DNA of 64,000 nt from Dehalococcoidia bacterium. Lineage in GTDB: Bacteria; Chloroflexota; Dehalococcoidia; Plut-88900. The translations under genes and the position numbers were made by a program. The notes beneath the pieces were generated by a model. That model did no database searches. It worked only from the letters and a program-made list of their open reading frames with translations, and had not been told where the DNA came from. This document shows positions 41,671 to 62,890 of this stretch, piece after piece (within the stretch, counting starts at the first letter, position 1; every line of letters begins with the position of its first letter). The DNA lies in NCBI GenBank assembly GCA_965197585.1, contig OZ240215.1, positions 1,536,001 to 1,600,000 on the forward strand, written 5' to 3'.

Positions 41671-41676
41671 ACCCCC

Positions 41677-41705
41677 TTGACTTTACTGAACATATGTACT
41701 ATATT
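41677..41705 (+). promoter_or_regulatory. Sigma70 promoter with a LexA (GAAC-N4-GTTC-type) box
   Basis: TTGACT-17-TATATT; GAAC-ATAT-GTAC at 41688-41699. Confidence 0.7.
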
Positions 41706-41787
41706 ACCTCTCAGGCCCGACATCCCGCGTCGGCCCTAATCAAGGAATAGGTGGAACATCCGCCCCTGGCGGAACAAAAGGAGTCCC

Positions 41788-42870
41788 ATGAGTCGCACAA
41801 GGCTAATCAGGCCCCGTCGTCCCCGAGCGGTATGTCACCGCCCGGCCCCCGGCACGCGCCTCCTCCCCAATCCTCATTCCCGCCTGGACCATTCCCTGAG
41901 GCGGGGCATTCCGCTCGCCCTGAGCCGAGTCGAAGCATGTCCTGAGCCCCGTCGAAGGGGGTCTCAAGAGCGGAATGGGTGGGGCCTCCTCCCCTGTCCT
42001 CTCCATCTCAACTCCCACTACAAGCGCTGCCCAAAGGCCCTACGCCTACGCCTTCGCAGCGATCAATCACCGTCCCGCCCCCTGCATGGAAGGTCCCCGG
42101 ACAAATCACGGCACGCCCTTTCCAAGGACCACTGCCAAGTGCGCGCCCCACTCAAACGGCGCTTAGGTTTCGCCTCTTCAGGCGACGCCCTGGAGCACAT
42201 CGTCATGTCTCCACCTCGGGCCATAGTGCCCCCTTGGGCCTCCGCGCCCTTACCGGACTCCCACGGCCTAGACCTTGCCGGCCAGTCCGAACAGTCGGAT
42301 GAGCGCCGACTCAAAACCAACGCACCCTTCTCGGACTCCGCCGTCGCAGCCCTTGCCGGCCAATCCGAACAGTCGGATGAGCGCCGACTCAAAACCAACG
42401 CACCATTTAAGGATTCCACCGTCGTCACAACCGGAGAACTTCCGACTACGAACGCCGGTCACGGGTCCACGCTCCCATCCCTTAGGGTGGTCGAGCACTT
42501 CTTTACGGATTCCACCGTCGTCACAACCGGAGAACTTCCGACTACGAACGCCGGTCACGGGTCCACGCTCCCATCCCTTAGGGTGGTCGAGCACTTCTTT
42601 ACGGATTCCACCGTCGTCACAACCGGACTACTTCCGACTACGAACGCCGGTCACGGGTCCCCGCTCCCATCCCTTGGGATGGTCGAGCACTTCTGGTGGT
42701 CGGGACTGCCCCACAGCGAGACTTCCTCGCGTCTCCTCCACATCCTCTCAGAAGTTCGGGGCTGTCGCAGAGTCGTCGCCGATGTGAACCGTCCCCAGGG
42801 GCGGACACCGTGCATCGGTACAGGCGTCGCCGTCTTCCTGCACAAACGTCCGGGACCTTCCATCCCCTCC
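41788..42870 (+). pseudogene. Internally deleted phage terminase large subunit-like relic, copy A (REP inserts, in-frame tandem duplications)
   Basis: AAGGAG-ATG start; GLDLAG...DSTVVT.GEL...VVEHFWWSG.PH...CRRVVAD...GTGVAVFL resembles a TerL RNase H-like nuclease domain; homologous to 54962-55500 and 62375-62890. Confidence 0.6.
42273..42694 (+). repeat. Tandem repeats: 78 bp x2, then 96 bp x3
   Basis: Units start at 42273/42351 and at 42411/42507/42603; near-identical copies. Confidence 0.9.
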
Positions 42871-42955
42871 CCCTCTGCCCCTCTAACAACCAAAACAGGT
42901 GTATACTCCCTCCATCCGGCATCCGGCCTTAGTCACCGACACGGGAGCAAGCGCC

Positions 42956-44284
42956 ATGACGAAGCTGAAGGTCGCTCACTACCTGAACCAGTTCTTCGCC
43001 GGCATCGGCGGCGAGGACAAGGCCAACACCTCACCGGGCACCGAACCCCGACCCCTCGGCCCCGGCAACTCCCTCCACCAGACCCTGACCTCCTCTGGCG
43101 ATGGAGCGGTCGTCGCAACCGTATTCTGCGGCGACACCTATTTCACCGAAAATGAAGAGGAAGCCCTCGACCGCATCGTCGAACTAGTCCGGGACTCTGG
43201 TGCCGACGTTCTCGTCGCCGGGCCCGCTTTCGGGTCGGGACGCTATGGCCTCGCCTGCGCCCAGGTCTGCCAAAAGGTTGCCTCTTCCCTCGGTATTCCC
43301 GTCGTAGCCGGAATGCACCCAGCCAGCCCGGGAGCCGAGCAGTACAAGGGCCAAGTCTACATCGCCTCCACCGCCGAGACCGCAGTCGGCATGCCAGCCG
43401 CCATCTCTGCTATGGCCAACTTGGCAGCAAAGCTAGGGCGTGGTGAAGAGCTCGGACCCGCCGACGAGGACGGCTATATACCCACCGGCCGGGTCAAGAC
43501 CCAGGTCCACGAAAAGACCATGGCCCAGAGACTTGTCGACATGGCCCTCAAGAAGGTCAGAGGCGAGCCTTTCGAGACCGAGTGGCCCCTCCCCACCATG
43601 GAGAAGATAGCCCCGGCGCCTGCCATAGATTCCTTGGCCGGTGCCCGTATCGCCCTCGTCACCGAGGGCGGCGTCGTCCCCAGGGGCAACCCCGACAAGA
43701 TTCCCAGCGGTTGGGCCCGCCACTGGGCCCGCTACGACATCGGCGAGACGTCAGACCTCACCGCCGAGGAATGGCAGTCGGTCCACGGCGGCTTCGATAC
43801 CACAACGTTAAACCGTGACCCGGACAGGGTCGTGCCCCTTGATGTGATGCGCGATCTGGAAGAAGAAAAGGCCATAGGCAAGGTCCATGAGTATATGTAC
43901 TCGACCGTCGGGAACCTTGGCTACGTCGCCAACATGAAGCAGTTCGGCCAGGATATCGCCGCCGAGCTTCAGGCCGCTGGCGTCCAGGGGGTGATCCTCA
44001 CCGGCACCTGAGGCACGGGTACACGTAGCGGCGCTACGCTTGCCAAAGAGTTGGAACGGGCCGGCCTTCCCACCGCCTTCATCACCGCAATGGTCCCATT
44101 GGCCCAGAGCATCGGTGCAAACCGGATCGTCCAGGGCAAATCAGTGACTACGACTACAGGCGACCCCAGCCTCCCCCCCGACGAAGAAAAAGCTTTCCGC
44201 CGACGCCTCGTCGAGAGGGCTCTCAAGTCACTGCAGTCCACTCCACAGGACCAGGAAGTCGTCTGGGGCGAGGACCGGGGCTAG
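42956..44284 (+). CDS. Glycine/betaine/sarcosine reductase selenoprotein B (GrdB)-family protein, Sec TGA at 44009-44011
   Basis: HYLNQFFAGIGGE, AGPAF.SGRYG, GNPDKI, HGGFD and DPDRVVPLD motifs. The frame continues GVILTGT-TGA-GTGTRSGATLAKELERAG into ORF 44051..44284. Confidence 0.9.
44012..44044 (+). promoter_or_regulatory. Putative bacterial SECIS hairpin
   Basis: GGCA...CGTAGC-GGC-GCTACG..TGCC directly after the TGA. Confidence 0.65.
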
Positions 44285-45819
44285 ACCGCCACCCGCTCCA
44301 GGTCTTTCAGTATGGCCTTTGCGGCGTTGTGTCCCGGTGCCCCAGTGATCTCTCCACCGGGGTGCGTCCCCGACCCGCACATGTAGAACCGGTTGATACT
44401 CGACCGGTACGGCATCCGACCCGTGAAAATCTGTTTCGTCGTTATGTCTATATGCCGGATGTTGCCGTCCGTGAGGAATTGCCTGATCTCGATGTCCTCC
44501 GGCGTCTGCAGCGTCCAGTCCACTATCGACTCCCGGAAGTTGGGTGCATAGGTCGTCAGTATGTCTATCAGCTGCTCCCCGACCTTCGGGCCCTCCACGT
44601 CCCACGAACCGTCTTTTAGCTCCGCAGGCGCATACAGCGTCCACGACGAAAGCACGTGGTGGCCCGCCGGCGTCAACGACTTGTCGTAGATCGAAGGCAT
44701 CTGCACGTTCATCACCGGGCAGCTTGAGGGATAGCCGTTCTTGGCGTCGTCCCAGCTCTGCTGGAAGTAGTCCACCGAGGGACAGATTCGGAAATACGCC
44801 GTCAGTCGAGGATCGTATTCCTCCCCCAGGTAGCTGCTGAAGTCGGGCAGCTCCCGTAGGGCAACCAGCAGCTTGACGCAGTTCGCTCGAGTGGATAGTC
44901 CGTCTACTTTGGTCTTCGTAGCCGCGTCTACGTCGGCCGCATCCACCAGGTCCCGGTAAGTGCGCTTGGGGTCGGCGTTGGACACGACCATGAAACTCCT
45001 GATCTCTTCACCGCTCTCCAACCTGACCCCGACCGCCGTCCCGTCTTCGACAATCACCTTGTCTACTACAGTGTTCAACCTGATCTCGACCCCGAGGGAC
45101 TTGGCATACCGGGCCATCGCGAAGGGCAGTTGGCTCATGCCACCGCGCGGTATGCCATAATTCTCCGGCTTGGTGAAGGTGTTTACTCGCAGATATGCCA
45201 GGCTCAGGATGCTGCCCGGTGCGCTTGGGTCACCTGCGTCCTGGGCGTCGATGAAGTGCGCCTTCACCTGCGGATGCTCGAAGTGCCTGTCGACCAGGTC
45301 TCTCATGCTGACGGTGAGCATGGTCTCCCACACTTCCTCATCACTCGTGCCCCGGACGTCCTGGTAAACCTCCGCAAGCGTCGGCGGCTCCCGGAACCAG
45401 TACCTGTGCAGGATCGCCGACGCCCTTTCCCAGAAGTTCACCCATTCAGGGAATGCCCGGGCATCCCTCTCCGAGAACCGGGCCAGCTCCTCTGCGTTCC
45501 GGTGATTCTCCCGGTACGTCATGATGTAGTTGCCGTCCGGGAACGGGTCGAACCGGAACGTCGTGAACGGGATTATGTCCAGCCCGTTGTCCCGCAACTT
45601 CAGGTCGTCGATCACCCGTCCCTGCATGATGTGCAGAATGTAGGCGCAGTAGGGGATGGTGAAGCCCGGGGCGAGTTCGTCGCTGACCACGGCGCCGCCC
45701 ACCATTTCGAGCCGCTCCAGCACCAGGACTTTCAGGCCTTCCTGGGCCAGATATCCCGCCGTGACGAGACCGTTGTGCCCCGCCCCGATGATGATGGCGT
45801 CGTATTCGTGCTGCTGCAT
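44281..45819 (-). CDS. Phytoene-dehydrogenase-like NAD(P)/FAD oxidoreductase (COG1233)
   Basis: IGAGHNGL, GGM..L, VSNADPK and YMCGSGTHPGG.ITGAPGHNAA motifs. Confidence 0.88.
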   Translation of the reverse strand: MQQHEYDAIIIGAGHNGLVTAGYLAQEGLKVLVLERLEMVGGAVVSDELAPGFTIPYCAYILHIMQGRVIDDLKLRDNGLDIIPFTTFRFDPFPDGNYIMTYRENHRNAEELARFSERDARAFPEWVNFWERASAILHRYWFREPPTLAEVYQDVRGTSDEEVWETMLTVSMRDLVDRHFEHPQVKAHFIDAQDAGDPSAPGSILSLAYLRVNTFTKPENYGIPRGGMSQLPFAMARYAKSLGVEIRLNTVVDKVIVEDGTAVGVRLESGEEIRSFMVVSNADPKRTYRDLVDAADVDAATKTKVDGLSTRANCVKLLVALRELPDFSSYLGEEYDPRLTAYFRICPSVDYFQQSWDDAKNGYPSSCPVMNVQMPSIYDKSLTPAGHHVLSSWTLYAPAELKDGSWDVEGPKVGEQLIDILTTYAPNFRESIVDWTLQTPEDIEIRQFLTDGNIRHIDITTKQIFTGRMPYRSSINRFYMCGSGTHPGGEITGAPGHNAAKAILKDLERVAV

Positions 45820-45842
45820 TTAATGTGCTCCCGGGCCCCTGG

Positions 45843-46934
45843 CTAGTCGTACATGATGACGCTTCTGGCGATGTGTGCGTCCCTCATATCCTCGAAAGCC
45901 TCGTTAATGTCTTCCAGCTTGATCCGCTTGGAGATTATCTCGTCCAGCTTCAGCCGACCCTGTCGGTAAAGCTCCATGTACTGCGGCATGTCCACCCTGA
46001 AGTGGTTGGAGCCCATGTTGCTTCCCTGGATTCGGCGCCCGTCCAGCAACGAGGGCCCGTCTATCGTGACCTTTGTCCCCTGCGGGATCATGCCGATAAC
46101 CGTGGCCATACCACCCTTATCGAGCATGTCGTAGCACTGCTCTGCCGTAACCGCCTTCCCTATCGCCTCGAACGCATAGTCCACTCCCAGGCCTCCCGTG
46201 AGTCCTTTTACCTTGTCGACTACCCCACCCTTCGACGCGTCGATAACGTCCGTAGCCCCGACCCTCTGCGCAAATCCCAGCTTGTCCTCCACGGCGTCTA
46301 TCGCTATGACTTTCGCCGCCCCGGCAATGATCGCTCCATTGATCGCGCTCAGTCCAACCCCCCCACACCCCACAACCGCCACGGTACTCCCCGGCCTCAC
46401 CCTGGCTGTCCTCATCGCCGCCCCGACTCCCGTGGTCACGCCACAACCTATCAACGCCTGCACTTCGATTGGCACATCCTCTTCCACAACCACCGCCGCG
46501 TTCTCGTGGACCAGCATGTACTCCGCAAAGGAAGACAGGTTCATCGCTTGGTGGATCACTTCGTCGCCCTTGTGCAGGCGCGGCGACTCATTACGCCCCC
46601 TCTTGAGGCCTACTCCCCTGCAGTTCACCATCTCGCCCTGTATGCACTTGTCGCAGGTGCCGCAGAACACGGAAAGGCAGGTTATGACCCTGTCTCCCGG
46701 CTGATGGTACGTCACCTGGGCCCCGACTGCTGCCACCGTCCCCGCAGCCTCGTGTCCCAGGATGGTCGGCAGGGGGCACTTGTACAGCCCGTCTATGTAG
46801 TGCAGGTCGCTGTGGCAAACTCCGGAAGCTCCCGTCTTTATCAATATCTCCCGGGGCCCGGGTTCCCCTACGTCAACCTCTTCTATGGTAACCGGCTCGT
46901 ACGGCGCCCTCATAACGGCTGCTTTCATCTTCAT
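45843..46934 (-). CDS. Zn-dependent alcohol dehydrogenase (class III/FDH-like)
   Basis: CHSDLH, GHEAAG, CGTCDKC, GCGVTTG and GCGGVG motifs. Confidence 0.92.
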   Translation of the reverse strand: MKMKAAVMRAPYEPVTIEEVDVGEPGPREILIKTGASGVCHSDLHYIDGLYKCPLPTILGHEAAGTVAAVGAQVTYHQPGDRVITCLSVFCGTCDKCIQGEMVNCRGVGLKRGRNESPRLHKGDEVIHQAMNLSSFAEYMLVHENAAVVVEEDVPIEVQALIGCGVTTGVGAAMRTARVRPGSTVAVVGCGGVGLSAINGAIIAGAAKVIAIDAVEDKLGFAQRVGATDVIDASKGGVVDKVKGLTGGLGVDYAFEAIGKAVTAEQCYDMLDKGGMATVIGMIPQGTKVTIDGPSLLDGRRIQGSNMGSNHFRVDMPQYMELYRQGRLKLDEIISKRIKLEDINEAFEDMRDAHIARSVIMYD

Positions 46935-46997
46935 CTCGGGTGTCCTCCTTGGGTTTTGGTCAATCGGACTCGGTCATTCGTAACGTGATTCGTATTG

Positions 46998-48080
46998 CTA
47001 GTCAAAGGTGAGCACACTCCGGGCCACGTGGCCTTCTTTCATGTCATCAAAGGCCCTGTTTACGTCTTCCAGGGGCATCTGCTGGGAGATCATCTCCTTC
47101 AGCTTCAACCGACCCTGTAGATATAGCTCTATGTAGCGGGGCATGTCGATCCGGAACCTGTTCGACCCCATGCTGCTCCCGCCAATTTTTCTCTCACTCA
47201 ATAGGGACGGCCCGTCCAGGTGGATCATCGTTCCTTCGGGAATCATCCCGATAACCGTGGCCAAGCCTCCGGAATCGAGCATGTTGTACGCCTGCTCCGC
47301 CGTCTCTTTCAGCCCGATAGCTTCGAATGAGTAGTCGACGCCCCTCGGCGAGAGTGAGAACACCTTATCCACCGTCCCCCCACCCGAAGCGTCAATTACA
47401 TCCGTCGCCCCAAGCTCCCTCGCCAACGCCAGCTTAGTCTCTATCGTGTCGATGGCGATAATCCGCTCGGCGCCGGCGAGCACCGCCCCTTGCAAAGCAC
47501 TCAGCCCGATTCCCCCCAGCCCCAGCACCGCCACCGTGCTTCCAGGTGCAACCTTTGCAGTGTTCAGGGCAGCGCCCACACCCGTCGTAACCGCACACCC
47601 GATCAACGCCACCTCTTCGAGGGGAACATCCTTCCGTATCTTGCAGGTGGCATTCTCATGCACCAGCATGTACTCTGCGAACGTGGACAGGAACGAAAAC
47701 TGGTGCATGATGTCCCCATTCTGTCGCAGGCGAGAAGGCTCGCTGGGGAGACGTTCCATCCCTTTCCTACGGCATAGGTTAGGATGCCCGCTCAGGCACT
47801 TGTCACATACGCCGCAGAATACCGAGAGACACGTAATCACGTGGTCGCCCGGCTTCACGTAGTCCACCATCGACCCCACAGCCTCTATCACCCCTGCCGC
47901 CTCGTCACCCAGCACAGTCGGCAAGGGGAACGAGTACTTGCCCTCCATGTAATGAAGGTTGCTGTGGCAGACCCCCGAGGCCACCGTCCGCACCACCACC
48001 TCGTTCGGCCCCGGATCATCGATCTGTACGTCCTCAATAGTTAGCGGGGTATCGACCTCGCGTAGTACGGCTGCTTTCAT
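46998..48080 (-). CDS. Zn-dependent alcohol dehydrogenase paralog with variant catalytic site
   Basis: CHSNLH, GDEAAG, CGVCDKC and GCAVTTG motifs. Confidence 0.9.
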   Translation of the reverse strand: MKAAVLREVDTPLTIEDVQIDDPGPNEVVVRTVASGVCHSNLHYMEGKYSFPLPTVLGDEAAGVIEAVGSMVDYVKPGDHVITCLSVFCGVCDKCLSGHPNLCRRKGMERLPSEPSRLRQNGDIMHQFSFLSTFAEYMLVHENATCKIRKDVPLEEVALIGCAVTTGVGAALNTAKVAPGSTVAVLGLGGIGLSALQGAVLAGAERIIAIDTIETKLALARELGATDVIDASGGGTVDKVFSLSPRGVDYSFEAIGLKETAEQAYNMLDSGGLATVIGMIPEGTMIHLDGPSLLSERKIGGSSMGSNRFRIDMPRYIELYLQGRLKLKEMISQQMPLEDVNRAFDDMKEGHVARSVLTFD

Positions 48081-48335
48081 GGGTCACCTCCCTATCGTGG
48101 GTCTCGATGCGGTGTAAGTTTAGTTAGCGGCACACAATGCGGGTCACGGGTGAGTTTATTATCCCCCGTCGCACGGAGTCAACATGTCTATCCCGCATCA
48201 GAAAATATGCCCGCGCCGATGATTAAACCGCTCTCCTCATTATTCGCCGACCCAATCTGCTGTAAGATGTAGGAACAACGCTGGTTCCACAAGGACCCGC
48301 GTTACAATTCCATATGCCAATTTCCCACTAGGAGC

Positions 48336-48881
48336 TTGCCCATGACGTCGCCCTCAGGTTCCAAGATCATCATGGAAGGCCAATTTGACACGCGCTACAT
48401 TGGATACTACCGCATTTGGGTGTCCATGTTCCTTGTCATCACCGTAGTCGGCATTCTCTTCATACCGTTCTGGCTGATTTTCAGCCTGTGGTACGGCCCC
48501 GAGTCCATACGCCGCCTCTCCGTTCGGCTCACCCCAACCACCCTCGAAATCGGGAAAGGCGTCTACTTCCGTAAAGAAATCACCATTCCCCTGAGCCGCA
48601 TCACCGACGTCCGGCTCCACGATGGCCCCCTGATGCGATTCTTCCGCATCCGCGGCCTTAAGGTCGAGACCGCAGGCCAGTCCGGCAATGATGCAGGCAC
48701 AGAGGGTGATCTCGTCGGCGTCATCGACCCAGTGGAGTTTCGGGACGCCATCCTTCGCCAGCGTGAGGGTATAGTGGAAGGCGCTCAGCCCCCCACCCCC
48801 TCCCCTGCCGCTTCCGGTGACACTGACTCCGTCCTAACCGAAATCCGGGACATCCTCGCCCGCATAGAGTCAAAGGCCTGA
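48336..48881 (+). CDS. Bacterial PH-domain (YdbS/bPH_2-like) membrane protein
   Basis: N-terminal TM pair; IPL.RITDV...GPLMR.F....LKVETAG. Confidence 0.8.
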   Translation: MPMTSPSGSKIIMEGQFDTRYIGYYRIWVSMFLVITVVGILFIPFWLIFSLWYGPESIRRLSVRLTPTTLEIGKGVYFRKEITIPLSRITDVRLHDGPLMRFFRIRGLKVETAGQSGNDAGTEGDLVGVIDPVEFRDAILRQREGIVEGAQPPTPSPAASGDTDSVLTEIRDILARIESKA

Positions 48882-48933
48882 ATGACCTGAGACTAACCTG
48901 GGTGCGTCGCACTCCACTCAACCCCCTGATTAC

Positions 48934-48977
48934 AAAAGGAATCGGCGAATGCCCAGGGCATTCGCCGATTCCTTTTT
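48934..48977. terminator. Bidirectional Rho-independent terminator
   Basis: AAAAGGAATCGGCGAATGCCC-A-GGGCATTCGCCGATTCCTTTTT between convergent genes. Confidence 0.85.
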
Positions 48978-48996
48978 CTGCAAAATAGTTGGGCAG

Positions 48997-49455
48997 CTAC
49001 TCCGTAGTTACCTTCTCTCCCTTACCGACTAGAGCGGCCTTCAGGGTATGCCAGGCGAGGCTCGCGCACTTGACCCGCATCGGGAATTGGCTGACTCCAG
49101 TCAACGCCGCTAGCTTGCCCAGCCTATCGATTGCCTCCATCATATCCATGCCGGTCTCCCCGGTCACCGACTCGTGGAACAGTTCAAACAGCTCCCGGGC
49201 TTCCTCTTTATTCAGACCCTTAACCAGCTCCGTCATCATTGACGCCGAGGCCTTGGAGATAGCGCACCCATCCCCCTGAAACCCCACTGCCATGATAGTC
49301 TCCCCGTCCAGCACGACTTCCACGTTTATTATGTCCCCGCACAGCGGGTTGTACCCTTGCGCCGAGCCGTTTGCGTTTTCGAGTGGCCCGAAGTTTCGGG
49401 GCCGGTTGTTGTGGTCCAACACGGCCTGCTGATACAGGTCTGAAAGATCGCTCAT
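48997..49455 (-). CDS. sufU: SUF system NifU-family Fe-S assembly protein
   Basis: NPLCGD, GCAISKAS and RVKCA motifs. Confidence 0.93.
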   Translation of the reverse strand: MSDLSDLYQQAVLDHNNRPRNFGPLENANGSAQGYNPLCGDIINVEVVLDGETIMAVGFQGDGCAISKASASMMTELVKGLNKEEARELFELFHESVTGETGMDMMEAIDRLGKLAALTGVSQFPMRVKCASLAWHTLKAALVGKGEKVTTE

Positions 49456-52830: not shown

Positions 52831-52847
52831 GTCGGTTCTGCCTCCGC

Positions 52848-54429: not shown

Positions 54430-54845
54430 CCATTGAACCCCTTCCTCCCCGAGGGGAGCGTGTCCGCCTAAGGCAGATCATTCCACCCGCCCAGAGCCGG
54501 TCAAAGATGCTGAAAGTGGAACATCCGCCGGTCTGAAAGTCCGCCCTAGGCGGAAAAGATGCACCTTTGGCGTGAGCCAAGGCGTGAATCCATCTCCAGT
54601 GGCAGGGCCGCTCACCCTGAGCGCCGTCGAAGGGTCGAGCGGGGGGGAGGCCCCGCACTGCCAACCCGTCGCACCCGCCCAACACCCCCCTCCCCCCTTG
54701 GCAACGATATATCAGCCGTGTTGTTCTGCAACACGGCTGATATATCAATAAAACAGGGTGGGTGGGCGGGTACCAATTAAACGGGGTGTCCGGGAGGCGT
54801 CCTACCCCCTCTCCCTCCGATGGGAGAGGGTTGGGGTGAGGGTGA
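54430..54845. repeat. BIME-like REP mosaic including a 41-bp inverted repeat (54706-54746)
   Basis: Shares blocks with 41016-41670 and 62040-62270. Confidence 0.75.
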
Positions 54846-54872
54846 CCTTTCCCCAAAAGTGACACGAACCCC

Positions 54873-54902
54873 TTGACCTAATCAAAACACATGTACTATA
54901 TT
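54873..54902 (+). promoter_or_regulatory. Sigma70 promoter with a LexA-like box
   Basis: TTGACC-18-TATATT; AAAC-ACAT-GTAC at 54885-54896. Confidence 0.65.
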
Positions 54903-54961
54903 CGCCCCCAGGCTCCGACCTTGTACGTCGGCCCTAATAAGGAAAGGACTAAAGGAGTCCC

Positions 54962-55500
54962 ATGAGTCGCACCAGCCTAATCAGGCCCCGTCGTAACCGA
55001 GCGGTATGGAACCGCCCGGCGCCCGACACGCGCCTCCTCCCGAGTCCCTCTTTCAACACCGTGTCCCTCGGATTCCCTCTACCAAGCGATGGAAGGTCCT
55101 TCGACTGTCGGCGGCATTCTCCCTCTAAGGGCCTTTGCCGATATATCGCCCCCTCATCCGGGCGTTTGCTCCTCGCCGACTTTACCCTCGCCGAGGATAT
55201 ATCCGCGTCTTTTGACGCGTTTGCCAGGGCCTTAGTGCCCTTATCCGGCTCCACCACCCGCTGTAACTGGAGATTCTCCTTCGGTCCACCGCGGCATCGA
55301 GTCGTTATGCCGTCCCACGCAGCGGTCGAGCGCTGCCGCCGGACGGATAATCCCCACCCAGAGACGCCCTCGACTTCGGTATGTCTCCTCCGACATGCGT
55401 GGGGATATCGCAGGACAGCCGTCGACGCCACCAGCGTCGGCGCAGGTGTCGTCGTCTTCCTGCTTACCAGTCCCGGACCTTCCATCGCCTCCCCTTCCCT
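54962..55500 (+). pseudogene. Terminase large subunit-like relic, copy B
   Basis: AAGGAGTCCCATGAGTCGCAC start shared with copy A; ...LLRHAWGYRRTAVDATSVGAGVVVFL resembles the TerL vvDatGvG motif; ends CCCGGACCTTCCATC. Confidence 0.6.
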
Positions 55501-55976
55501 TGCCCCATTCCCAGGCTCCGCTAGAAATCTCGGACTTGCCCACTCACCTATCTCCGCCCTCCCGGCCACTCAGCGGAAATCCAGGTGGGGAGGCCCCTAC
55601 CCCCATCACCCACGAAAGAAACCCGCCTATCTGCTCACATCCCCCACTCTCCCAACCGAGCAGCCAAAGAAAACGTCCCTTTTCCAAAACAATCAAAATT
55701 CGTGCCTCTAACCGAAATTCAATCAAAACCCCCCCATCAGAACAACCCCCACAAAAGGAGACTGCCTGCTAGCCGATACCTCCTACTCAGCCCCCACAAC
55801 TAAATATCGCACCTTCCGGGGCCTGGCATCTGGCCCTCACTGAACGGGTCAAAGGGACAGCGGAATAGCGAGAAGACACCCTTTACCCCCATCAACCTTC
55901 CCCTCCCGGTTGACGCCCACGCACCCGCTTATTACAGTTGTCCCCCGAGACGATAACCCCGAAGGGAGCACCCGAC

Positions 55977-57374
55977 GTGACCGCCAAACAACCCACCCGA
56001 ATAGAAAAAGACTCCATGGGCCCAATGGAGGTCCCCGCCGACGCCTATTACGGCGCTTCCACAATGCGGGCCGTCCTCAACTTCCCCATCAGTGACCTGA
56101 GATTTCCCCGCTCCTTCATCCGAGCCCTTGGCCTGATCAAGCTCGCCGCCTCGGAAGTCAACTCCAGCCTGCGTTTACTGGAACCCGACAAGAAGGACGC
56201 CATCGTCCAGGCTGCCCAGGAGGTCGTCGACGGCAAACTTGATGCCCATTTCGTCCTCGATGTCTTCCAGACCGGCTCCGGCACCTCAACCAATATGAAC
56301 GCCAACGAGGTCATCGCCAACCGCGCCTCCGAGATCATGGGCGGCGACATCGGCTCCCGTATCGTCCATCCCAACGACCACGTAAACAAGGGCCAGTCCT
56401 CTAACGACGTTATCCCCACTACAATGCACCTCGCAGCCCTTACCGAAATCGAGACCAATCTCATCCCCGCCCTACGGCGCACCCATGCGGCGCTCGAATC
56501 CAAGTCCCGAGACTTCTGGGACATCATCAAGACCGGCCGCACCCACCTCCAGGACGCGACACCCGTGCGACTCGGGCAGGAGTTTCTTGGTTACGCAGGC
56601 CAGATCAAGCTCGGCATCCGACGCCTCTCCCACGCCCGGGAAGAGCTTTCACAGGTCGCCCTCGGCGGCACCGCCGTCGGCACGGGCGTCAACACCCACC
56701 CCGAGTTCGCCGCCCGAGTCACCGCCCGCGTCTCCGAGCTCGGCGGCGTGGAAATTCGAGAAACCGAGAACCACTTCCAGGCCCAAAACACCCTCGACGC
56801 CGTCGTCGAGTCCAGCGCCGTCCTCCGAACCATCGCCATCAGCCTCACCAAGATAGCCAACGACATCCGGTGGATGGGCTCAGGCCCCAGGGCCGGCATC
56901 GGCGAGCTAGCCCTCCCCGAGGTCCAGCCCGGAAGCTCTATCATGCCCGGTAAGGTAAATCCAGTCATTCCCGAATCCGTCATCCAGGTCTGCGCCCAAG
57001 TCAAGGGCAACGACACCGCCATCGCCGCCGCCGCCCAGGACAGCTATTTCGAGATCAACTTGATGATGCCCGTGGCCGCCTACAACCTCCTACAGTCCAT
57101 TTCCATACTCTCCGCCGCCGCCGACAACTTCACCAGCCAGTGCATACAGGGCCTTCAGGCCACCGACCAGGGCCCCAAAACCGTGGAGCGAGGCCTTATG
57201 ATCGGCACTTCCCTCGCCCCCGTCATCGGCTACGACCTTGCAGCCCAAATCGCCAAAGAAGCCTCAAAAAGTAACCGCACCATCCGTGAGGTAGCCCGAG
57301 AACTCACCGATCTCTCCGAAGAAGACCTCTCCCGCATCCTCGACCCCAAAACCATGGTAGAACCCCGCGCCTAA
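55977..57374 (+). CDS. fumC: Class II fumarate hydratase
   Basis: RIEKDSMG, QTGSGTS.NMN.NE, GRTHLQDA and GSSIMPGKVNP motifs; GTG start after GGGAG. Confidence 0.93.
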   Translation: MTAKQPTRIEKDSMGPMEVPADAYYGASTMRAVLNFPISDLRFPRSFIRALGLIKLAASEVNSSLRLLEPDKKDAIVQAAQEVVDGKLDAHFVLDVFQTGSGTSTNMNANEVIANRASEIMGGDIGSRIVHPNDHVNKGQSSNDVIPTTMHLAALTEIETNLIPALRRTHAALESKSRDFWDIIKTGRTHLQDATPVRLGQEFLGYAGQIKLGIRRLSHAREELSQVALGGTAVGTGVNTHPEFAARVTARVSELGGVEIRETENHFQAQNTLDAVVESSAVLRTIAISLTKIANDIRWMGSGPRAGIGELALPEVQPGSSIMPGKVNPVIPESVIQVCAQVKGNDTAIAAAAQDSYFEINLMMPVAAYNLLQSISILSAAADNFTSQCIQGLQATDQGPKTVERGLMIGTSLAPVIGYDLAAQIAKEASKSNRTIREVARELTDLSEEDLSRILDPKTMVEPRA

Positions 57375-57556
57375 GTGTTAATTCACAGAACGAGGGGTTG
57401 TCACCTCTCTCATAAAGAACTGCCACCAACTGCGATGCACTTGGTGGCAGTCCGAATGAACTTTTTGGGGTGGCACTCCGTCCCTTTCCGTTCGCCCTGA
57501 GCAGAGTCGAAGGGTCTCAAGAACGGAAAGGGACGGAGTGGGGGCGGAGTCCCCTC

Positions 57557-58657
57557 CTAACTCGGAAACTGGATCACAGACCTCAACACCTCACCCCTCT
57601 CCATCTCCTCGAACGCCTCCTCCACGTCCTCCAGCTTGATCAGCTTCGTCACCGCCCTGTCCAGGTCCAGCTTGCCCTGCAGATACCAGTTGGCCAGCAT
57701 CGGGAAGTCCCGAGACGGTAGATTGTCCCCGTACCAGCTAACCCTCAGCGATCCTCCTAGCCCGAAGAACTGAAGCATCGGCAGCTCCATCACCATAGTC
57801 GGGTCCGGCACCCCGATAAGCGTGCACGTCCCCGCCAGGTCCCGAGACCACAGCGCCTGCAGCAACGTCGCCGGTGTCCCGACCGCTTCGAAGGCGTGGT
57901 CAACGCCGTGGCCACCCGTGATCTCCTTGATCGCTTCAACCGGGTCGCCCTTGGTCGCGTCGACTACGTGAGTTGCCCCGAAATCCTTGGCCCATGCCAG
58001 CTTGTTGTCGGCAATGTCCACCCCGATTATCGTCTTTGCATTGGCCAACTTGGCGCCCATGATCACACTGCAACCCACCCCGCCGCACCCATACACCGCC
58101 ACCGTGCTCCCCCGACGCACGCCTCCCGTATAAAGCGCCGCCCCGACACCCGTCGTCACTCCGCAGCCGAGCAGACATGCCTGTTCCGGCGGGCATTCCC
58201 GAGGCACAGGCACGGCCTGCTTTGCCGACACAACGGTATGAGTGCAAAACCCCCCTATACCCAGCGCGGGCGAAAGCAGCTTACCGTCGCTTTTGGCAGT
58301 CATCCTGGGTTTCGCATTCAGGCTCGCCGAGCACAAATGCGGCTGCCCGATAGCGCAAAACCGGCAGTTGCCGCACGGCGCCCGCCAGGCGATCACCACA
58401 TATTCACCCACGCCCGGCGACTCCACCCCCTCCCCCACCGCCTCAACGATACCCGCAACCTCGTGCCCTAGCAGGAACGGAAACTCGTCCGTAATCTTCC
58501 CAAGCTTGTAATGGAGGTCCGTATGGCACACCCCGCTGGCCTGTATCCTTACCAGCGCCTCCCCCGGCCCCGGGTCCTCCACCACCATCTCCTCCACCCG
58601 TGTAGGCGCACCCGCCTCCCTCGAAATCACCGCCTGCGCTATCGTAGACATGTACAA
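57557..58657 (-). CDS. S-(hydroxymethyl)mycothiol dehydrogenase (MscR/AdhE2-like)
   Basis: CHTDLHY, FPFLLGHE, L.PALGIG.F, RDLAGT, GG.L..SWYGD.LPSRDFPML and GEVLRSV motifs. Confidence 0.8.
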   Translation of the reverse strand: MYMSTIAQAVISREAGAPTRVEEMVVEDPGPGEALVRIQASGVCHTDLHYKLGKITDEFPFLLGHEVAGIVEAVGEGVESPGVGEYVVIAWRAPCGNCRFCAIGQPHLCSASLNAKPRMTAKSDGKLLSPALGIGGFCTHTVVSAKQAVPVPRECPPEQACLLGCGVTTGVGAALYTGGVRRGSTVAVYGCGGVGCSVIMGAKLANAKTIIGVDIADNKLAWAKDFGATHVVDATKGDPVEAIKEITGGHGVDHAFEAVGTPATLLQALWSRDLAGTCTLIGVPDPTMVMELPMLQFFGLGGSLRVSWYGDNLPSRDFPMLANWYLQGKLDLDRAVTKLIKLEDVEEAFEEMERGEVLRSVIQFPS

Positions 58658-58706
58658 CCTCCGCGAAAGCTGAAATGTCCGCGTATCCTAACACACGCGG
58701 TGTGGA

Positions 58707-59062
58707 ATGAACCCTCATATGCCGACTCGAAAGAAAAACACCGAGTCCGTTCGAGAGGAAGCCGTCAATACGCTTACCGCCCACACCCTCCACCCTGTCC
58801 CCGACTCCCTGTCCCCGCTTCTTGCCTCTATGGTCGAACCTATGGCTTGCTCCTACCGGGGCATTGCGCTGGGTCGGCTGAGGATCGAAAGTCGGGTGCT
58901 TGTGCTGGGCGCCGGGACCGTCGGCCTCTTTGCAGGCCTCCTGGCCCGGGACCGCACCGCCGAGGTCGCCATCACCACCCGATACCCCCAGCAAATCAAA
59001 GCCGCCCGAAGGCTGGGGCTCACTCCCCTAGGCGAGAGCGAATGGGAGGATTGGGCCCGTGA
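58707..59062 (+). pseudogene. Internal fragment of a Zn-binding (MDR) dehydrogenase
   Basis: Contains only ...SMVEPMAC...VLVLGAGTVGL...RYPQQ..AA..LG; lacks the catalytic N-terminus and the C-terminus. Confidence 0.65.
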
Positions 59063-60210
59063 CCGCTATGCCAGCCAGAGCCGAACGTCATCCCGTCGTA
59101 GCCGACCACCCAAACGCGCACGTCCTCCGTGGTCACCCAGTGGCCCTCTGCGGGAACATCAGATATATCAGTGCCGAGCAGGTCCTTGAGGGCCGTTCCC
59201 ACCAGTGCTTTGTCGTAGTGGTCTACGATTGTGCCACTACTGTCGGCAATGAACGCGAACCATTCCCCTTCGACGGTCTGGGCGCTGTTGTAGTAGTCGA
59301 TAGTCGCTGCCAGTCCTGAATAAACGCTCTCGGGGCCGGTGAAGTATGCGATGGTCGCTTCCAGTCCTGCCGAACGGAACTTGTTGACGGCGGCGAACAC
59401 CAGGGACATGGTGAATTCATCGGCGTTGACATACCAGCCGGAGGCGAACAGCAGCCCGTCGTGCCTCACAACCCAGGCGTTCTTGAGTTGCAGCGTGCCG
59501 GAGTGGTCGGAACCGAGACTGCCACTCTCCGGATTTCTGAACACGTAGGACACCCACTTGCCCTCCCCGGTGGCAGACAGCATGTCCGGCCCGAAGTTGT
59601 AGCCGTTGGCGTCGGTGCCCACCCAGCCCTTCAGGTCCAGCCCAAGGCGGTGAGCATCGGGATGTCCGATGACCAGATCGTTCTCGTCTATGATGAACAC
59701 GTACCACTGGCCGTCGATGCTCTCTGGGCGGTTGTAGTAGGCGAGGGTGGCGTCCAGTCCCTGGCTCTCGTACCTGCTGATGGCCTTCTCTACGAAGAAC
59801 TTGGTGTACTCGACGGGGGCTGACGTGGGTGGGATAGAGGCGACGACGCTGCGGGCGATGCGCTCGGCTTCAGCGGCCGTGAGTCCGGGTTCCGGACGGG
59901 GCATGTCTGCTATCGCCGCCCGGATGGCGGCTTCGATTATCTGCTCGACATCCTCTTGGGACAGTCCCGATTCAGGCTGGGGCATGTCCGCCATCGCCGC
60001 ACGGATAGCATCCTCTACATCTGCGGAAGTGAGTCCCGGCTCCGGTTGGGGCGGGGCTGGCGCGTCGGCTAACTCCTCACGCACGATCTCCTCAACCTCG
60101 GCGCGGGACAATCCTGCGTCTCCGTCTCCGCAGGCGACAAGGAGAACCAGAAGCATCACGGCTAGCGCTGGTGCGACCTTATTCATCTTCAGCCTAGTTG
60201 ACAACTTCAT
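59020..60210 (-). CDS. Lipoprotein with four helical repeats and tandem Cache-like domains
   Basis: Lipobox LVAC; GL(S/T)..(E/D).. repeats x4; WYVFIID....GH, D.NG, G.WVSY..NP and FASGWY-type motifs occur twice. Confidence 0.7.
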   Translation of the reverse strand: MKLSTRLKMNKVAPALAVMLLVLLVACGDGDAGLSRAEVEEIVREELADAPAPPQPEPGLTSADVEDAIRAAMADMPQPESGLSQEDVEQIIEAAIRAAIADMPRPEPGLTAAEAERIARSVVASIPPTSAPVEYTKFFVEKAISRYESQGLDATLAYYNRPESIDGQWYVFIIDENDLVIGHPDAHRLGLDLKGWVGTDANGYNFGPDMLSATGEGKWVSYVFRNPESGSLGSDHSGTLQLKNAWVVRHDGLLFASGWYVNADEFTMSLVFAAVNKFRSAGLEATIAYFTGPESVYSGLAATIDYYNSAQTVEGEWFAFIADSSGTIVDHYDKALVGTALKDLLGTDISDVPAEGHWVTTEDVRVWVVGYDGMTFGSGWHSGHGPNPPIRSRLGE

Positions 60211-60255
60211 AGGCTATCCAATAGAGCCAAGCATTGCGGGGCAATCCTAATCTCA

Positions 60256-61632
60256 TCAGAGTCCCCCGATGTCCGCCGCTACCTTGTGGCCTGAGTCGTC
60301 GGCAACGGCGTCGTGGCTCAAATCAGCGTCGTTTATTCCGTATCCGAACTTCCCTGTGGCATCCTTGATCTGTTGACCTGTCAGCTTATTGGCGCCGATG
60401 GAGATGCCGTTGTCGTCAGTGTCCCCAGCCTGCACGGTGTAGGCATAGACCACCTCCGTGCCATCGTGGCTCTCGTAGGCGGCGGTTCTGGCTGTGCCTC
60501 CTATGTCAAGCGCAAGCTCGGCTTTGCAATGAACAACTTCGCTGCTACAACTGATGCTTGTGGGAATGCTCATATTCTCGCTGAAGGTCACGGTGACTTC
60601 GATCTTGTCCCCGGTCCCATAGGTGTCGTCATCCCCCGGGTCGGAGGTAAAGGCGATAGACGAAACGGTTGGGGCAACCGCATCCACTATGAAGGATGAG
60701 TCGGCAGCTACGGCCGAGTGGGTCAGAATGGCATCGTTGCCCGCTGCGTCTCTAATGAATCCTCCATTGAGGTCTACCGAGTTGGCGCTAATGGTCGGCC
60801 CGTCACTGTCCAAATCTCCTTCCTGTACCACGTATCCGAAATAGCCCCGATCCCGATACCGGTCAGTGTGGAGGGAGGGGTCCCATTTGGCCACCCTCGC
60901 TTCGCCATCGAAGTTCAAAGTAACTCGCGGTGGACCGGTGACGCTGCCCCGGACTCCATCTTCGCTGAACTCTACTTTGACGAGCAGCTCTTCGCCTGTG
61001 GTGTATGCCCCGTCACTTCCGCCCGAGCTTGCCAGAAAGTCGAGGCTGTCGAGTCTCTTTAGCCGCGGTCGAACGCCGTCAACCTTGTGTCCATCCTGAG
61101 CAGCCAGGGCGTTGTGGGACAGGTCGGCGTCATTGTTCGCCGCATCCTTGATGCTGCCGCCATTGAGCGTTAGCTTATTGGCGTTTATAGCGATTCCGTC
61201 CCTGTCCCAGTGGCCCTCTGCCACCGTGTAGCTGAAAACCACTGCGCTGCCCTCGGCACTCTCGTAGGCAGCGGTCCTATTGCTGGAGTCGAGAGCCAGT
61301 TCCAGTTGTGGTGAGCCAGTGACAGTTACGTTCTCGCTGAACGTCACCGTCACCTGAACATCGTCGCCGATGCGGTAGACGCCCGAAGCCCAGCTGGTCG
61401 ATTGCACAATGCTGCCGCCAGACCGGCCGACAATGTAAGCACCCAGATCGGCGTCGTTTTCATCGGGGTCGCTGGTGATGGCGACGGACGAGATGGTCGG
61501 GGCCGTAGTATCCGCTTGGGCCGAAACTGAGGGCAGGCCGTCGAATGCGAACAGTCCGATGATTCCCACGAGCACTCCAACCACAAGCGCCCACGCCAGT
61601 GTCCATCTAAGGGTTCCTATTCTTATGGTCAT
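60256..61632 (-). CDS. Secreted protein with about 3 Ig-like beta-sandwich repeats
   Basis: Signal peptide; repeated V.V.FSE, YTV..GD.D.DG and I.DAA.NDA.L.H units. Confidence 0.65.
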   Translation of the reverse strand: MTIRIGTLRWTLAWALVVGVLVGIIGLFAFDGLPSVSAQADTTAPTISSVAITSDPDENDADLGAYIVGRSGGSIVQSTSWASGVYRIGDDVQVTVTFSENVTVTGSPQLELALDSSNRTAAYESAEGSAVVFSYTVAEGHWDRDGIAINANKLTLNGGSIKDAANNDADLSHNALAAQDGHKVDGVRPRLKRLDSLDFLASSGGSDGAYTTGEELLVKVEFSEDGVRGSVTGPPRVTLNFDGEARVAKWDPSLHTDRYRDRGYFGYVVQEGDLDSDGPTISANSVDLNGGFIRDAAGNDAILTHSAVAADSSFIVDAVAPTVSSIAFTSDPGDDDTYGTGDKIEVTVTFSENMSIPTSISCSSEVVHCKAELALDIGGTARTAAYESHDGTEVVYAYTVQAGDTDDNGISIGANKLTGQQIKDATGKFGYGINDADLSHDAVADDSGHKVAADIGGL

Positions 61633-62039
61633 CTGGTTCCTCTCTCTGGAGATTTGGGAGCCTTCCCTTGGGTGAGCTCCACGGGTTACGTAGTCACAAC
61701 CCGCCCAAAACCACCACCGCCGTACCCTCGCTTGTCTGGGACTCCTCGCTCCCGGCGTCGTCGGTATAGGTGGCTCGCACCGAGCGTCATTTCATAATTG
61801 GCGAAGGTTATAATCGCACTTTTGGGATTCTTTGCCAAGCTACGGCCTCCTATGTACCCCCTACATAGGCTGCGAAGCCGGGATTGCATGACAATGCCGT
61901 AGCGTCACCCCACTGGCAATTGCCCGGCCCGTCGCGCCCTGGACGACGGCATATCCAAAATCCTCGGCCTCCCTGACCTCGCCAAGCTAAGAGACCTCCT
62001 GGCCTCGGAACCCGTCATATCCAACCGGCCCTTATGATC

Positions 62040-62270
62040 CCAGCCCCCATCCCGAGCCCCCCCAATTGACCCCCCCCGAAGTGAGCCTGTCCGCCTAAGG
62101 CGGATCATTCCCGACCCCGAGAGCCGAAATCCACCCCCATCCCCCTCCCCCCAGTACTGAACTAGAGGGAGACGTTGGCGCGTCTGCGCCAACGTCTCCC
62201 TCTGTTCTTATCTCCCCCTCTCCCTTAATGGCCCTAAGGGAGAGGGGGATCAAGGGGGTGAGGGTTCCCG
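62040..62270. repeat. REP mosaic including an 18-bp-arm inverted repeat (62164-62203) and a family A unit
   Basis: AGAGGGAGACGTTGGCGC-GTCT-GCGCCAACGTCTCCCTCT; GAGCCTGTCCGCCTAAGGCGGATCATTCC block shared with about 41230 and 54460. Confidence 0.7.
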
Positions 62271-62312
62271 GTGGGGCTGGGGCGGTGTTCCCCCGAAAGT
62301 GACACGAACCCC

Positions 62313-62342
62313 TTGACCCGTGTGGAACACTAGTGCTATTAT
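62313..62342 (+). promoter_or_regulatory. Sigma70 promoter with a LexA-like box
   Basis: TTGACC-18-TATTAT; GAAC-ACTA-GTGC at 62325-62336; upstream AAAGTGACACGAACCCCTTGACC identical to copy B. Confidence 0.6.
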
Positions 62343-62374
62343 CCTCACCGTTCGAACACCAACCTAACTATCTC

Positions 62375-62890
62375 AAGGAGGAACCAAAAACCCAGGGAAG
62401 CCCACCCGACCCACCCGAGGACTCAACGCCCCAGCCCATCCCAACGGCCCTCGCGCAGGCCCGCGGCACAAGCGAAAGCGGAACGTCCGCCTATGGAGGA
62501 GCGCCATCTCCTCATCCCACCGGGTCCCGTATCCCCTTCCCTGACTCCCAGGCGATGGATGGTCCACAATTTTAAGCGGCACGCTCCCCTCAAAGGAGCC
62601 CTGCCCAAATGAGCCCCGCTCACGCCGGGCCAAACACCTCGGGCCTTTACGCCCTTGGAAATATCTCCCCCGTCGTTCCCTTCGGAGACCCCCATACAAC
62701 CAGCGACGGCAGCGAGAAAACGTGCTCCCCACCCCTCCGAGTGGGTCAGCCAAAACTGGTGGTAGAGATGCCCTCAAGCGAGAACCCCTCGCTTGTCTAC
62801 CACGTGATAACAGAAGCACGGGGCTGAACCAGGCTGGCCTCCCGCCCCCTGAATCCGAGTCCCGGACCTTCCATCGCCTGCCCTCCCCCA
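62375..62890 (+). pseudogene. Terminase-like relic, copy C (most decayed, no start codon)
   Basis: Shares the GCGATGGA..GGTCC...CGGCA...AAGG..CC.TGCC block and the 3' GTCCCGGACCTTCCATCGCC end with copies A/B. Confidence 0.45.

Follow-up and report, generated by a model that had tools for sequence, protein, structure and literature searches.

The 64,000-nucleotide (nt) stretch of DNA analysed here (hereafter the window), positions 1536001-1600000 of the single 3.43-Mb contig of an uncultured Dehalococcoidia bacterium, contains three related sequences that we call copies A, B and C. We conclude that they are very probably members of a genus-wide family of non-autonomous transposable elements of the cut-and-paste (DDE-like) type, 0.6-1.2 kb long and present in about 72 copies in this genome. 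Their cargo appears to be an internally deleted packaging operon of a prophage, including part of the gene for the terminase large subunit (TerL), rather than the remnant of an insertion sequence (IS).

Homology among window positions 41677-42870, 54873-55500 and 62313-62890 had been proposed in an earlier reading of the letters alone (the sequence-only reading), and it is borne out by repeat families D5, D7, D10, D13 and D15 and by a MAFFT alignment. The promoter, an internal block and the 3' end, whose coordinates could be read in all three copies, are common to A, B and C, and A and B share in addition a leader hairpin and AAGGAGTCCCATGAGTCGCAC (protein start MSRT.LIRPRR), with frames that stay open for 455 and 249 amino acids (aa), all as that reading had it. 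In each copy a 12-nt palindrome abuts the -10 box (Table 1). The internal block, (G)CGATGGA(A/T)GGTCC (IR-L in Table 1), and the 3' block (IR-R) are mutual reverse complements, a relation absent from the earlier reading. An AAGGAG ribosome-binding site stands 4 nt upstream of the ATG in A and B; copy C is missing this ATG and has no long open reading frame (ORF). A Pfam scan of the 17 neighbouring ORFs at 39.2-64 kb agrees with the sequence-only reading in finding no phage gene, integrase or transposase: the families identified are of the housekeeping kind (SUF genes, GrdB, fumarase, RibF, alcohol dehydrogenases), and 3 of the 17 ORFs gave no match. Across the whole window there was no tRNA or tmRNA and no Rfam 15 match at the gathering score; at E <= 10, the surroundings of A and B gave just chance-level microRNA and snoRNA hits.

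A census of the genome with an iterated nhmmer profile of the 48-nt promoter module returned 81 modules, 72 of which head an element. The three copies in 21 kb counted earlier are indeed there, as a mere sample of a dispersed family with a mean of about one copy per 48 kb. Because the modules recur throughout the genome (81 promoter modules and 34 right-end modules), the likeness of A, B and C is beyond chance. The elements fall into 56 C-type copies, which continue with AAGGAGGAACCAAAAACCCAGGG... and GAGGACTCAA, 14 A/B-type copies that start with ATG, and 2 variants. Their build is modular: a 5' module of about 250 nt occurs in 56 copies and a 3' module in 20-39, and the central ~350 nt splits into subfamilies of 5-11 copies each. 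Every one of the 34 right-end modules lies 620-820 nt 3' of a promoter module on the same strand. Complete copies measure 680-880 bp, and copy A about 1200 bp. The family was found in all eight other species of this Dehalococcoidia genus and in none of 32 genomes outside it (3 other genera of the same taxonomic family and 29 other families of the class). The nine remaining promoter modules head other genes, namely uvrC, a dGTPase/primase operon, an ABC transporter, a thioredoxin-reductase-like gene, a capsid operon, two TerL operons and two others. The module copy before uvrC (genome 887687, minus strand) is a weaker one with the palindrome GCACGGTTGTAC, and uvrC is the sole classical repair gene found behind a module.

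On sequence comparison, the element bodies descend from the 3' part of a TerL gene. The intact parent genes were found in two minus-strand operons (genome 1119956 and 2874405), each with a gene for a protein of 132-134 aa and a TerL-like ORF (463 aa long in one case and called at 430 aa in the second). Both operons bear the same promoter module as the elements, in keeping with the earlier suggestion that a truncated TerL gene with its own promoter was the source. The peptides GLDLAG, DSTVVT, VVEHFWW, RRVVAD and VDATSVGAGV, which had been recognized as TerL-like by eye, align to YVAGIDLAGES, DSTVVTIGEL, VVEHHWW, RRVIVD and DATGIGAGV of the two intact paralogues, and the larger intact protein contains ...YVAGIDLAGES...DSTVVTIGEL...LPSLRVVEHHWWTGRPHTE...CRRVIVDATGIGAGVAAFLRKRLGSSIVKPF.... 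By BLASTP, residues 74-362 of ORF A correspond to TerL residues 198-368 (E 6e-24 and 3e-14), and residues 39-178 of ORF B to TerL residues 228-368 (E 2e-17). Profile searches with ORF A and ORF B returned no Pfam family at E <= 10; the TerL link is made via the intact paralogue. For the intact TerL itself, Pfam and PDB sequence searches were empty (PDB, no match at E <= 1 with a single sequence or a 12-sequence profile), and the PHROG terminase large-subunit families 5909 and 5713 matched at E 7e-6 to 8e-5. The AlphaFold model of TerL is poor (mean predicted local distance difference test score 46) and usable just at residues ~255-370, a core with RNase H-like topology. Foldseek comparison of the model with viral models (BFVD) gave 52 matches at E <= 1e-3, the best at 2.8e-9, and the named ones are nearly all terminases; VIA-align retrieved T4 gp17 (Z 9.5, root-mean-square deviation 3.2, 125 residues) and several other terminase nuclease domains (Z 6.5-9.1).

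In the mapped elements that reach the 3' block, TerL homology stops at one point, the codons G-P-S-I. The element bodies are fragments rather than terminases: the ATPase domain is absent, the nuclease domain is missing its last ~95 residues, and the part retained spans the beta-strands of the RNase H-like core. Eight related assemblies gave hits for intact TerL, six of them with 2-4 copies at 72-81% identity and the other two with one hit each, and the ratio of nonsynonymous to synonymous substitution rates (dN/dS) among the intact copies is 0.28. The promoter module stands 5' of the small gene (terS) in 11 of 22 loci of the relatives. At genome 2856000-2875500 the TerL operon forms a cluster with genes for head morphogenesis, which encode a portal of the SPP1 type (SPP1_portal, E 1e-14), the major head protein (phrog_212, E 9e-75) and an adaptor of the SU10 type. 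The 15 ORFs scanned there included neither an integrase nor a lysis gene. This cluster is broken by a cupin gene and plus-strand ORFs, has an MFS transporter gene at its far end, and carries promoter-module copies of its own before the TerL and capsid operons.

Inverted repeats at the ends, target duplications of 5 bp and precise empty sites document the multiplication as a non-autonomous element that the sequence-only reading had proposed. Fifteen C-type copies start with TGATCCCGTTCACATAGAGGGGTGACA, and 34 copies finish with ...GTGTCACTAATCTACCGAACGAGTACA. For the 15 copies having both ends of this subtype, the ends form an imperfect terminal inverted repeat of ~35 bp (left end and reverse-complemented right end agree at 26 of 38 aligned positions), with a score of 29 against 11 +/- 5.9 for shuffled sequences (maximum 31 among 300 shuffles). 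Direct repeats of at least 6 nt, measured as the longest common string, flank 8 of the 15 copies, compared with 6 of 210 mismatched pairs. Of two neighbouring copies, the one at genome 3361685-3362430 has an empty site in the related assembly G002, where AAAGCCTCACCG is uninterrupted (duplication GCCTC), and the one at 3365077-3365924 has empty sites in G003 and G001 (duplication CAGGG); these two comparisons give element ends of 5'-TG...CA-3'. Precise empty sites in sister species indicate movement since the species split. The first of the two has a 96% identical counterpart elsewhere in this genome and is missing from the close relative G005, despite flanks that are 96-98% identical there, and thus we conclude that the family moved recently. 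The elements contain no transposase, since the ORFs of A and B have no Pfam match and the majority type has no conserved ORF.

Orthologous loci in the relatives correct one earlier claim, that the elements are attached to mosaics of repetitive extragenic palindromic (REP) sequences: the REPs are separate insertions beside the elements, and relatives have REPs without an element, or neither. Of the eight relatives, G002 contains copy B at 92-93% identity, with its ORF likewise open over 249 aa, G003 contains part of it, and the other six do not have it. Four of these (G004, G006, G007 and G008) have a gap of 75-82 nt between sufB and the fumarase gene, and G005 and G001 have REP mosaics at the site. 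Copy A is absent from G001, which has 104 nt in place of 1965 nt; homology with this empty site restarts at 42879, and the right boundary of the copy lies at 42865-42878, just past GGACCTTCCATC. In G005, G002 and G003 copy A is present without the insert at 41880-41991 and without the 96-nt triplication. Orthologous loci (L090, L091) join window position 41879 directly to 41992, and the same 111-nt gap is seen in the alignment of copies. The tandem-duplication units of A are all multiples of three, and the 96-nt triplication occurs only in this genome, the orthologues having one unit. An element is found upstream of the ribF orthologue, the site of copy C, in at least 6 of 7 relatives compared. 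There the 5' and 3' modules are kept and the central ~350 nt is replaced, even in G005, whose flanks are 92.5% identical, and this swapped centre points to recombination or conversion between copies. The right-end module of copy C was matched at genome 1598921-1598964.

Movement would be catalysed in trans. Of the 29 ORFs with an rve domain in the genome, 21 belong to one IS of ~1.06 kb, whose 21 copies are 89-100% identical and carry a 320-aa ORF with rve and rve_3 domains; on general family traits, it is tentatively placed in the IS481 family. Its ends (TGTAAGTGTTAGGTAATTCGTTGACAGA; TGT...ACA) are 28-bp inverted. In three of three copies read there is a 5-bp duplication, ATTCC, and the target is the same REP unit (GTCATTCC^GAGGC...GAGGAATC). 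Compared by eye in an alignment, the end of this IS and the right end of the elements are identical at 19 of 30 bases, and the common positions include TGT, GTT.G.GTA and TGACA. The IS is the best candidate for a helper in trans, and, judging from its sequence, the chances that it acts as one are about evenly balanced. About eight of its copies lie within 500 nt of an element. The additional left ends in the genome are accounted for by two copies, one split by an unrelated IS and one carrying a REP insert, and by the lone motif at the groES promoter, and a degenerate 11-mer scan for element ends gave 105 scattered matches and no convincing pair. A Mu-type transposase (PF02914) had no match here and none in the control genomes either, so that this search is uninformative. 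One other IS, present in a single copy at genome 659340-660650 (L076:540-1850), with a 423-aa rve transposase and ends CGTGCGACCTCAAAATT..., is inserted in one element, where it separates the left end from the promoter.

The sequence-only reading had described the promoter as SOS-driven and controlled by LexA. The AC-N4-GT core is present in 81 of 81 promoters, which supports a resemblance only, as the GAAC left half is found in 21 and the GTTC right half in 20. The other common left halves are AAAC (22) and GTAC (20), and the other right halves GTAC (34) and GTGC (25). The genome's lexA gene, at ~1609.9 kb, has a perfect GAACGCCCGTTC past its -10, and recA a half-match only. A LexA-type operator in the element promoters is plausible from these sequences, if a little short of an even bet, and a phage-type repressor is the main alternative. 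Taken over all 72 elements, the positions with high information content are GTGACA (about -45), CCTTGAC, the AC and GT of the palindrome and the -10 (TA...T); in the remaining spacer and just 3' of the promoter it is low. Conservation confined to functional promoter positions points to selection on function, not mere youth.

In 57 of 72 cases the gene that follows has the same orientation as the element; for A, B and C in the window the following gene is grdB, a fumarase-class lyase gene and ribF, respectively. On the 3' side of the right end there are 4-6 variable bases, TTGAC or a near match, ~17-18 unique bases and TA, a possible -10 start, and thus the elements adjoin, or supply, the -35 of the next gene. 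Before ribF, a promoter-like site takes its -35, TTGACC, from the right copy of a 17-nt direct repeat and continues with N17 and TACCAT. The sense strand of the element is the locally C-rich strand in 52 of 64 elements (p 5e-7), and genes show no such bias (997:953); strand-specific insertion at replication forks, or selection, could account for this. GC skew in the genome is strong (up to 0.2) and patchy (negative at 1.1-2.6 Mb, positive at 0.65-1.05 and 2.65-2.9 Mb), gene orientation is independent of it, and rearrangements may be part of the replication layout.

According to the transposon reading, the cargo would comprise the operon's sigma-70-type promoter with its LexA-box-like palindrome, a short leader, ribosome-binding site and start codon, and TerL residues ~198-368, that is, the linker and most of the RNase H-like nuclease core, cut at G-P-S-I. 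The promoter is probably active, as its functional positions are kept and the elements, mostly co-oriented with the next gene, abut just 5' of that gene's -35. The net effect would be that selfish repeats scatter a probably damage- or repressor-controlled promoter, plus a -35 at the far end, before housekeeping genes. The TerL similarity, the ends shared among copies and a dispersed family in place of separate prophages all agree with the sequence-only reading.

Several observations weigh against this interpretation. No autonomous element with the same ends is present in this genome, all 34 right ends being those of known copies, and the candidate IS matches the right end of the elements at just 19 of 30 positions and the left end at fewer. 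The A/B-type copies, A and B included, are without the right-end inverted-repeat module of complete C-types; the evidence from terminal inverted repeats, duplications and precise empty sites comes from complete copies of the majority type, and the mode of A/B-type movement lies outside it. The 5' ~100-180 nt of the elements have no detectable protein similarity to the intact small gene (for the first ~35 codons of ORFs A and B, E > 1 against the intact small protein). The DNA around the ribosome-binding site and ATG resembles the intact operon weakly, by eye, and the 5' part of the deletion-derivative model is correspondingly weak. The left-end motif also occurs alone before groES, and part of the element end may be a native promoter-upstream motif. 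An RNA library contains one 223-nt contig over 62550-62758 with 2 differences, for which DNA carry-over is possible. Finally, at 680-1200 bp the elements are large for MITEs (miniature inverted-repeat transposable elements, usually well under ~600 bp), and 'non-autonomous transposon' fits better than 'MITE' in the strict sense. The lone motif, TGATCCCGTTCACATAGAGGGGTGACATCACCCCCTTG, lies at genome 3404961-3405080 before groES-groEL, followed by a -35/-10 pair; the perfect inverted repeat TTAGCACTC-N9-GAGTGCTAA at this promoter is of the CIRCE type. The motif is either a solo end or a native promoter-upstream motif copied by the elements.

The A/B-type copies could be real genes for short basic proteins, truncated TerL nucleases made upon DNA damage that disturb the packaging of phages or prophages (e.g. 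terminase assembly), the majority type being decayed copies; we regard this as fairly unlikely. Damage-induced decoy peptides or RNAs had been raised as one possibility in the sequence-only reading. The preservation of frames is striking and was anticipated by the sequence-only reading: of the 14 copies with an ATG (A and B among them), 11 reach IR-R, and all 11 are open from the ATG through G-P-S-I. Their ORFs (525-1077 nt) are all multiples of three in length, gap runs are multiples of three in 17 of 25, and the 226 shared codons hold no stop, when simulated substitution from the consensus gives a probability of no stop of 0.035-0.32 per copy and 1.1-3.3 expected stops in each. Orthologous ORFs in other species span 249-363 aa and are open past IR-R in four of five loci checked, the fifth (L083) being without IR-R. 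The ribosome-binding site is good, and motifs at the putative catalytic D, E and D are kept in A-type copies. Selection on the encoded sequence tells a different story, with a median dN/dS of 0.84 for the A/B-type copies against 0.28 for the same residues of intact TerL, which argues against a conserved protein function. Moreover, these ORFs have no Pfam match, no ATPase domain and no final ~95 nuclease-domain residues, R, P and S, encoded by the C-rich DNA, dominate their composition, in-frame REP units and tandem duplications are tolerated, the orthologue at L090 is frame-shifted at G-P-S-I and still open, and an ORF is lacking in 56 of the 72 copies (those of the C type have neither a start codon nor an open frame in common). 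Open frames beyond simulated chance together with a dN/dS of 0.84 indicate that openness is selected and sequence hardly so. Translation may matter in itself, for example by keeping transcription going, or the products may be fast-evolving. Within the transposon reading, the A/B subfamily would be translated, or would have to stay translatable, with its frame kept, no stops and drifting amino acids. Promoter-headed ORFs at genome 1341685 (minus strand), 729003 (minus) and 1673462 (plus) and from L083:3446 onward contain in-frame tandem units ...LLGVEADACGIAPRMISR... repeated 3-5 times, which are REP-like DNA read through. Minus-strand ORFs over B and C (206 and 208 aa) give R/G-rich translations.

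That the family is chiefly a structured non-coding RNA of ~550-700 nt, in which a 14-16-bp helix closes a variable centre and transposon-like spread is secondary, seems distinctly improbable to us. The long-range inverted repeat (14-16 bp) has arms that covary by class (GCGATGGAAGGTCC/GGACCTTCCATCGC vs GCGATGGAAGACGCCC/GGGCGTCTTCCATCGC, with the cores GGTCC/GGACC vs GACGCCC/GGGCGTC), the hairpin of the 5' module occurs, by eye in the alignment, with four or more distinct self-complementary stem sequences in the same place, AAGGAGG is invariant, as is a CUCCU stretch with which it is predicted to pair, and conservation falls in short separate blocks. However, the intact TerL genes already hold the inverted repeat (GACGATGGAAGGTTCC ... 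GGAACCTCCATCGTC, with a one-base bulge, in codons DDGRF and G(T/P)SIV); it was inherited, not evolved for RNA, and inverted repeats suit a role at the DNA level equally. C makes up 38% and G 25.5% of the sense strand, the 5' module (190 nt) has a weak consensus fold (-12.5 kcal/mol), and Rfam gave no match at the gathering score and none that convinces at E <= 10. Two RNA libraries (on record as sponge metagenome) contain 12-13% of sampled words; RNA depth over the elements is repeat-inflated and not above that of neighbouring genes relative to DNA runs. The majority type, seen as a transposon, would have lost start codon and frame and kept the Shine-Dalgarno-like box, the compensatory hairpin and the TerL-inherited inverted repeat of 14-16 bp. 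A very improbable alternative is that the elements are dispersed pac-like sites, ~70 fixed-direction headful starts for a domesticated particle, gene transfer agent (GTA)-like or transducing, made of terS-terL and the head cluster. It would fit the constraint on intact TerL and its maintenance in 2-4 copies in most hit-giving assemblies, a structural cluster that is short and interrupted by host cupin and MFS transporter genes, one terS-terL operon with no other phage gene on its downstream side, and an orientation that follows replication-linked strand asymmetry (52 of 64). The portal is of the SPP1 type, and in SPP1 the pac site overlaps with the promoter and 5' end of terS. Repeats that could bind terS were not identified, though, terminal inverted repeats and target duplications already account for the spread, the orientation bias is explicable by the transposition mechanism or by selection on transcription, and, from the promoter up to the TerL part, the DNA of the majority type shows no similarity to that of the intact operon. 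We reject the reading that each copy is a separate prophage decayed in place: the bodies are phage-derived, but the mapped copies share their architecture and the G-P-S-I end point, no phage genes lie beside A, B and C, target duplications and empty sites are precise, and 72 independent decays to one form are not credible.

The transposon reading leaves room for a further step, which we judge quite unlikely, in which the host genus has co-opted the transposon-turned packaging module as ~70 damage- or repressor-controlled units. These may serve in one of three roles: stress wiring of housekeeping genes, sabotage of packaging by TerL-fragment peptides or sense RNAs, or oriented packaging starts for a GTA-like particle. 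This reading is left open by conservation limited to promoter and operator, open but drifting ORFs, the 52/64 strand bias, copies at the same locus with swapped centres, and an intact terS-terL under purifying selection.

The coordinates of the features are collected in Table 1. Two further observations concern neighbouring genes. The GrdB-like gene (window 42899-44011) probably starts at ATG 42956, rather than GTG 42899, and its upstream TGTATACT (a possible extended -10) is native sequence, also present in the empty site of G001. At 45843-48080 and 57557-58657 lie three paralogues of a zinc-type alcohol dehydrogenase gene, a tandem pair among them (families D2, D3 and D8; Pfam).

Table 1 Features of copies A, B and C and of their surroundings (window positions unless marked as genome)
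Feature	Position	Strand	Details
Copy A, ORF-keeping A-type element	41663..42878	+	promoter module, leader, fused ORF, TerL-derived body up to IR-R
Promoter of A	41677..41705	+	-35 TTGACT 41677-41682; 17-nt spacer; palindrome GAACATATGTAC 41688-41699; -10 TATATT 41700-41705
ORF A, 455 aa	41788..43155	+	overruns element end into grdB, different frame
REP-like insert, ~111 nt, in frame within ORF A	41880..41991	+	missing from orthologous copies in G005, G002
IR-L of A, ATGGAAGGTCC	42086..42096	+	from TerL codons D-G-R-F
Tandem duplications in A	42243..42693	+	2 x 78 nt (42243-42398), 3 x 96 nt (42406-42693); families D1, D6
IR-R of A, GGACCTTCCATC	42853..42864	+	TerL codons G-P-S-I; TerL homology stops here
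Copy B, A/B-type	54859..55500	+	-35 54873-54878; palindrome AAACACATGTAC 54885-54896; -10 54897-54902; IR-L 55086-55099; IR-R 55475-55486
ORF B, 249 aa	54962..55711	+	
Copy C, non-coding majority type	62299..62964	+	-35 62313-62318; palindrome GAACACTAGTGC 62325-62336; -10 62337-62342
Further parts of copy C		+	AAGGAGG box 62376-62382; IR-L 62552-62565; IR-R 62864-62875; diverged right-end inverted-repeat module 62921-62964
17-nt direct repeat CCCCCAATTGACCCCCC	62059..62075 (left), 62964..62980 (right)	+	encloses REP mosaic and copy C
REP-like mosaic 5' of A	40915..41660	.	families D4, D9, D11, D16, D17, D19; 104 nt instead in G001
REP-like mosaic 5' of B	54445..54855	.	different REP mosaics in G005 and G001, element missing
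REP-like mosaic between left direct repeat and copy C	62076..62296	.	
~1.06-kb IS, example copy	genome 1007810-1008865 (L112:945-2000)		~20 further places

Among known systems, the Correia repeat-enclosed elements of neisseriae are similarly non-autonomous, dispersed, mostly intergenic and present in many copies, with terminal inverted repeats and target duplication, and, as here, they bring promoter elements to neighbouring genes; they are described as encoding strong promoters (PMC11602168). Correia elements are ~100-160 bp long and have no gene-derived cargo, whereas the elements described here measure 680-1200 bp. Unlike Correia elements, they have a full -35/-10 promoter with an operator-like palindrome at one end and an extra -35 at the other, and they carry a fragment of a phage terminase gene, in 14 copies with the ORF kept open. 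In plants, Pack-MULEs consist of transposon ends around captured unrelated sequence and are moved in trans. In both these elements and TIMEs, described as Tn3-derived mosaic non-autonomous transposons (PMC4133298), transposon ends enclose captured foreign sequence that is moved in trans, as we propose here. The differences are that the cargo here is the promoter and a packaging-gene fragment of a resident prophage-like locus, that there are ~70 copies genus-wide, and that the ends are only loosely similar to those of the candidate helper IS (19/30). This IS481-like IS and the elements are alike in TG...CA-type ends and 5-bp duplications, but the IS targets REP sequence and the elements sit just 5' of -35 boxes. 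Relative to the TerL nuclease domain, with which ORFs A and B align over residues 198-368 and 228-368, the element ORFs differ in having no ATPase domain, relaxed selection (0.84) and in-frame REP or tandem inserts. Like LexA boxes (GAAC-N4-GTTC), the promoters have a 12-nt palindrome between -35 and -10 with invariant AC-N4-GT (81/81); unlike them, most copies deviate in one or both half-sites (GTAC, GTGC, AAAC).

Bacterial MITE-like repeats are normally deletion derivatives of insertion sequences, and in full-text literature searches no bacterial repeat family derived from a terminase or bearing a LexA box came to light. A phage-terminase cargo is an unusual origin for a bacterial repeat and would make this family a prokaryotic counterpart of transposons that carry gene fragments. 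For annotation, gene callers will give dozens of spurious or odd 'hypothetical proteins' and TerL-like fragments at these elements. The family would also represent a route by which phage regulatory DNA is copied over the chromosome. Should LexA or a phage repressor control the promoters, some 57 ordinary genes per genome would have gained an upstream, co-oriented, stress-responsive transcription unit, and this, if true, would amount to transposon-driven regulon rewiring in an uncultured Dehalococcoidia lineage.

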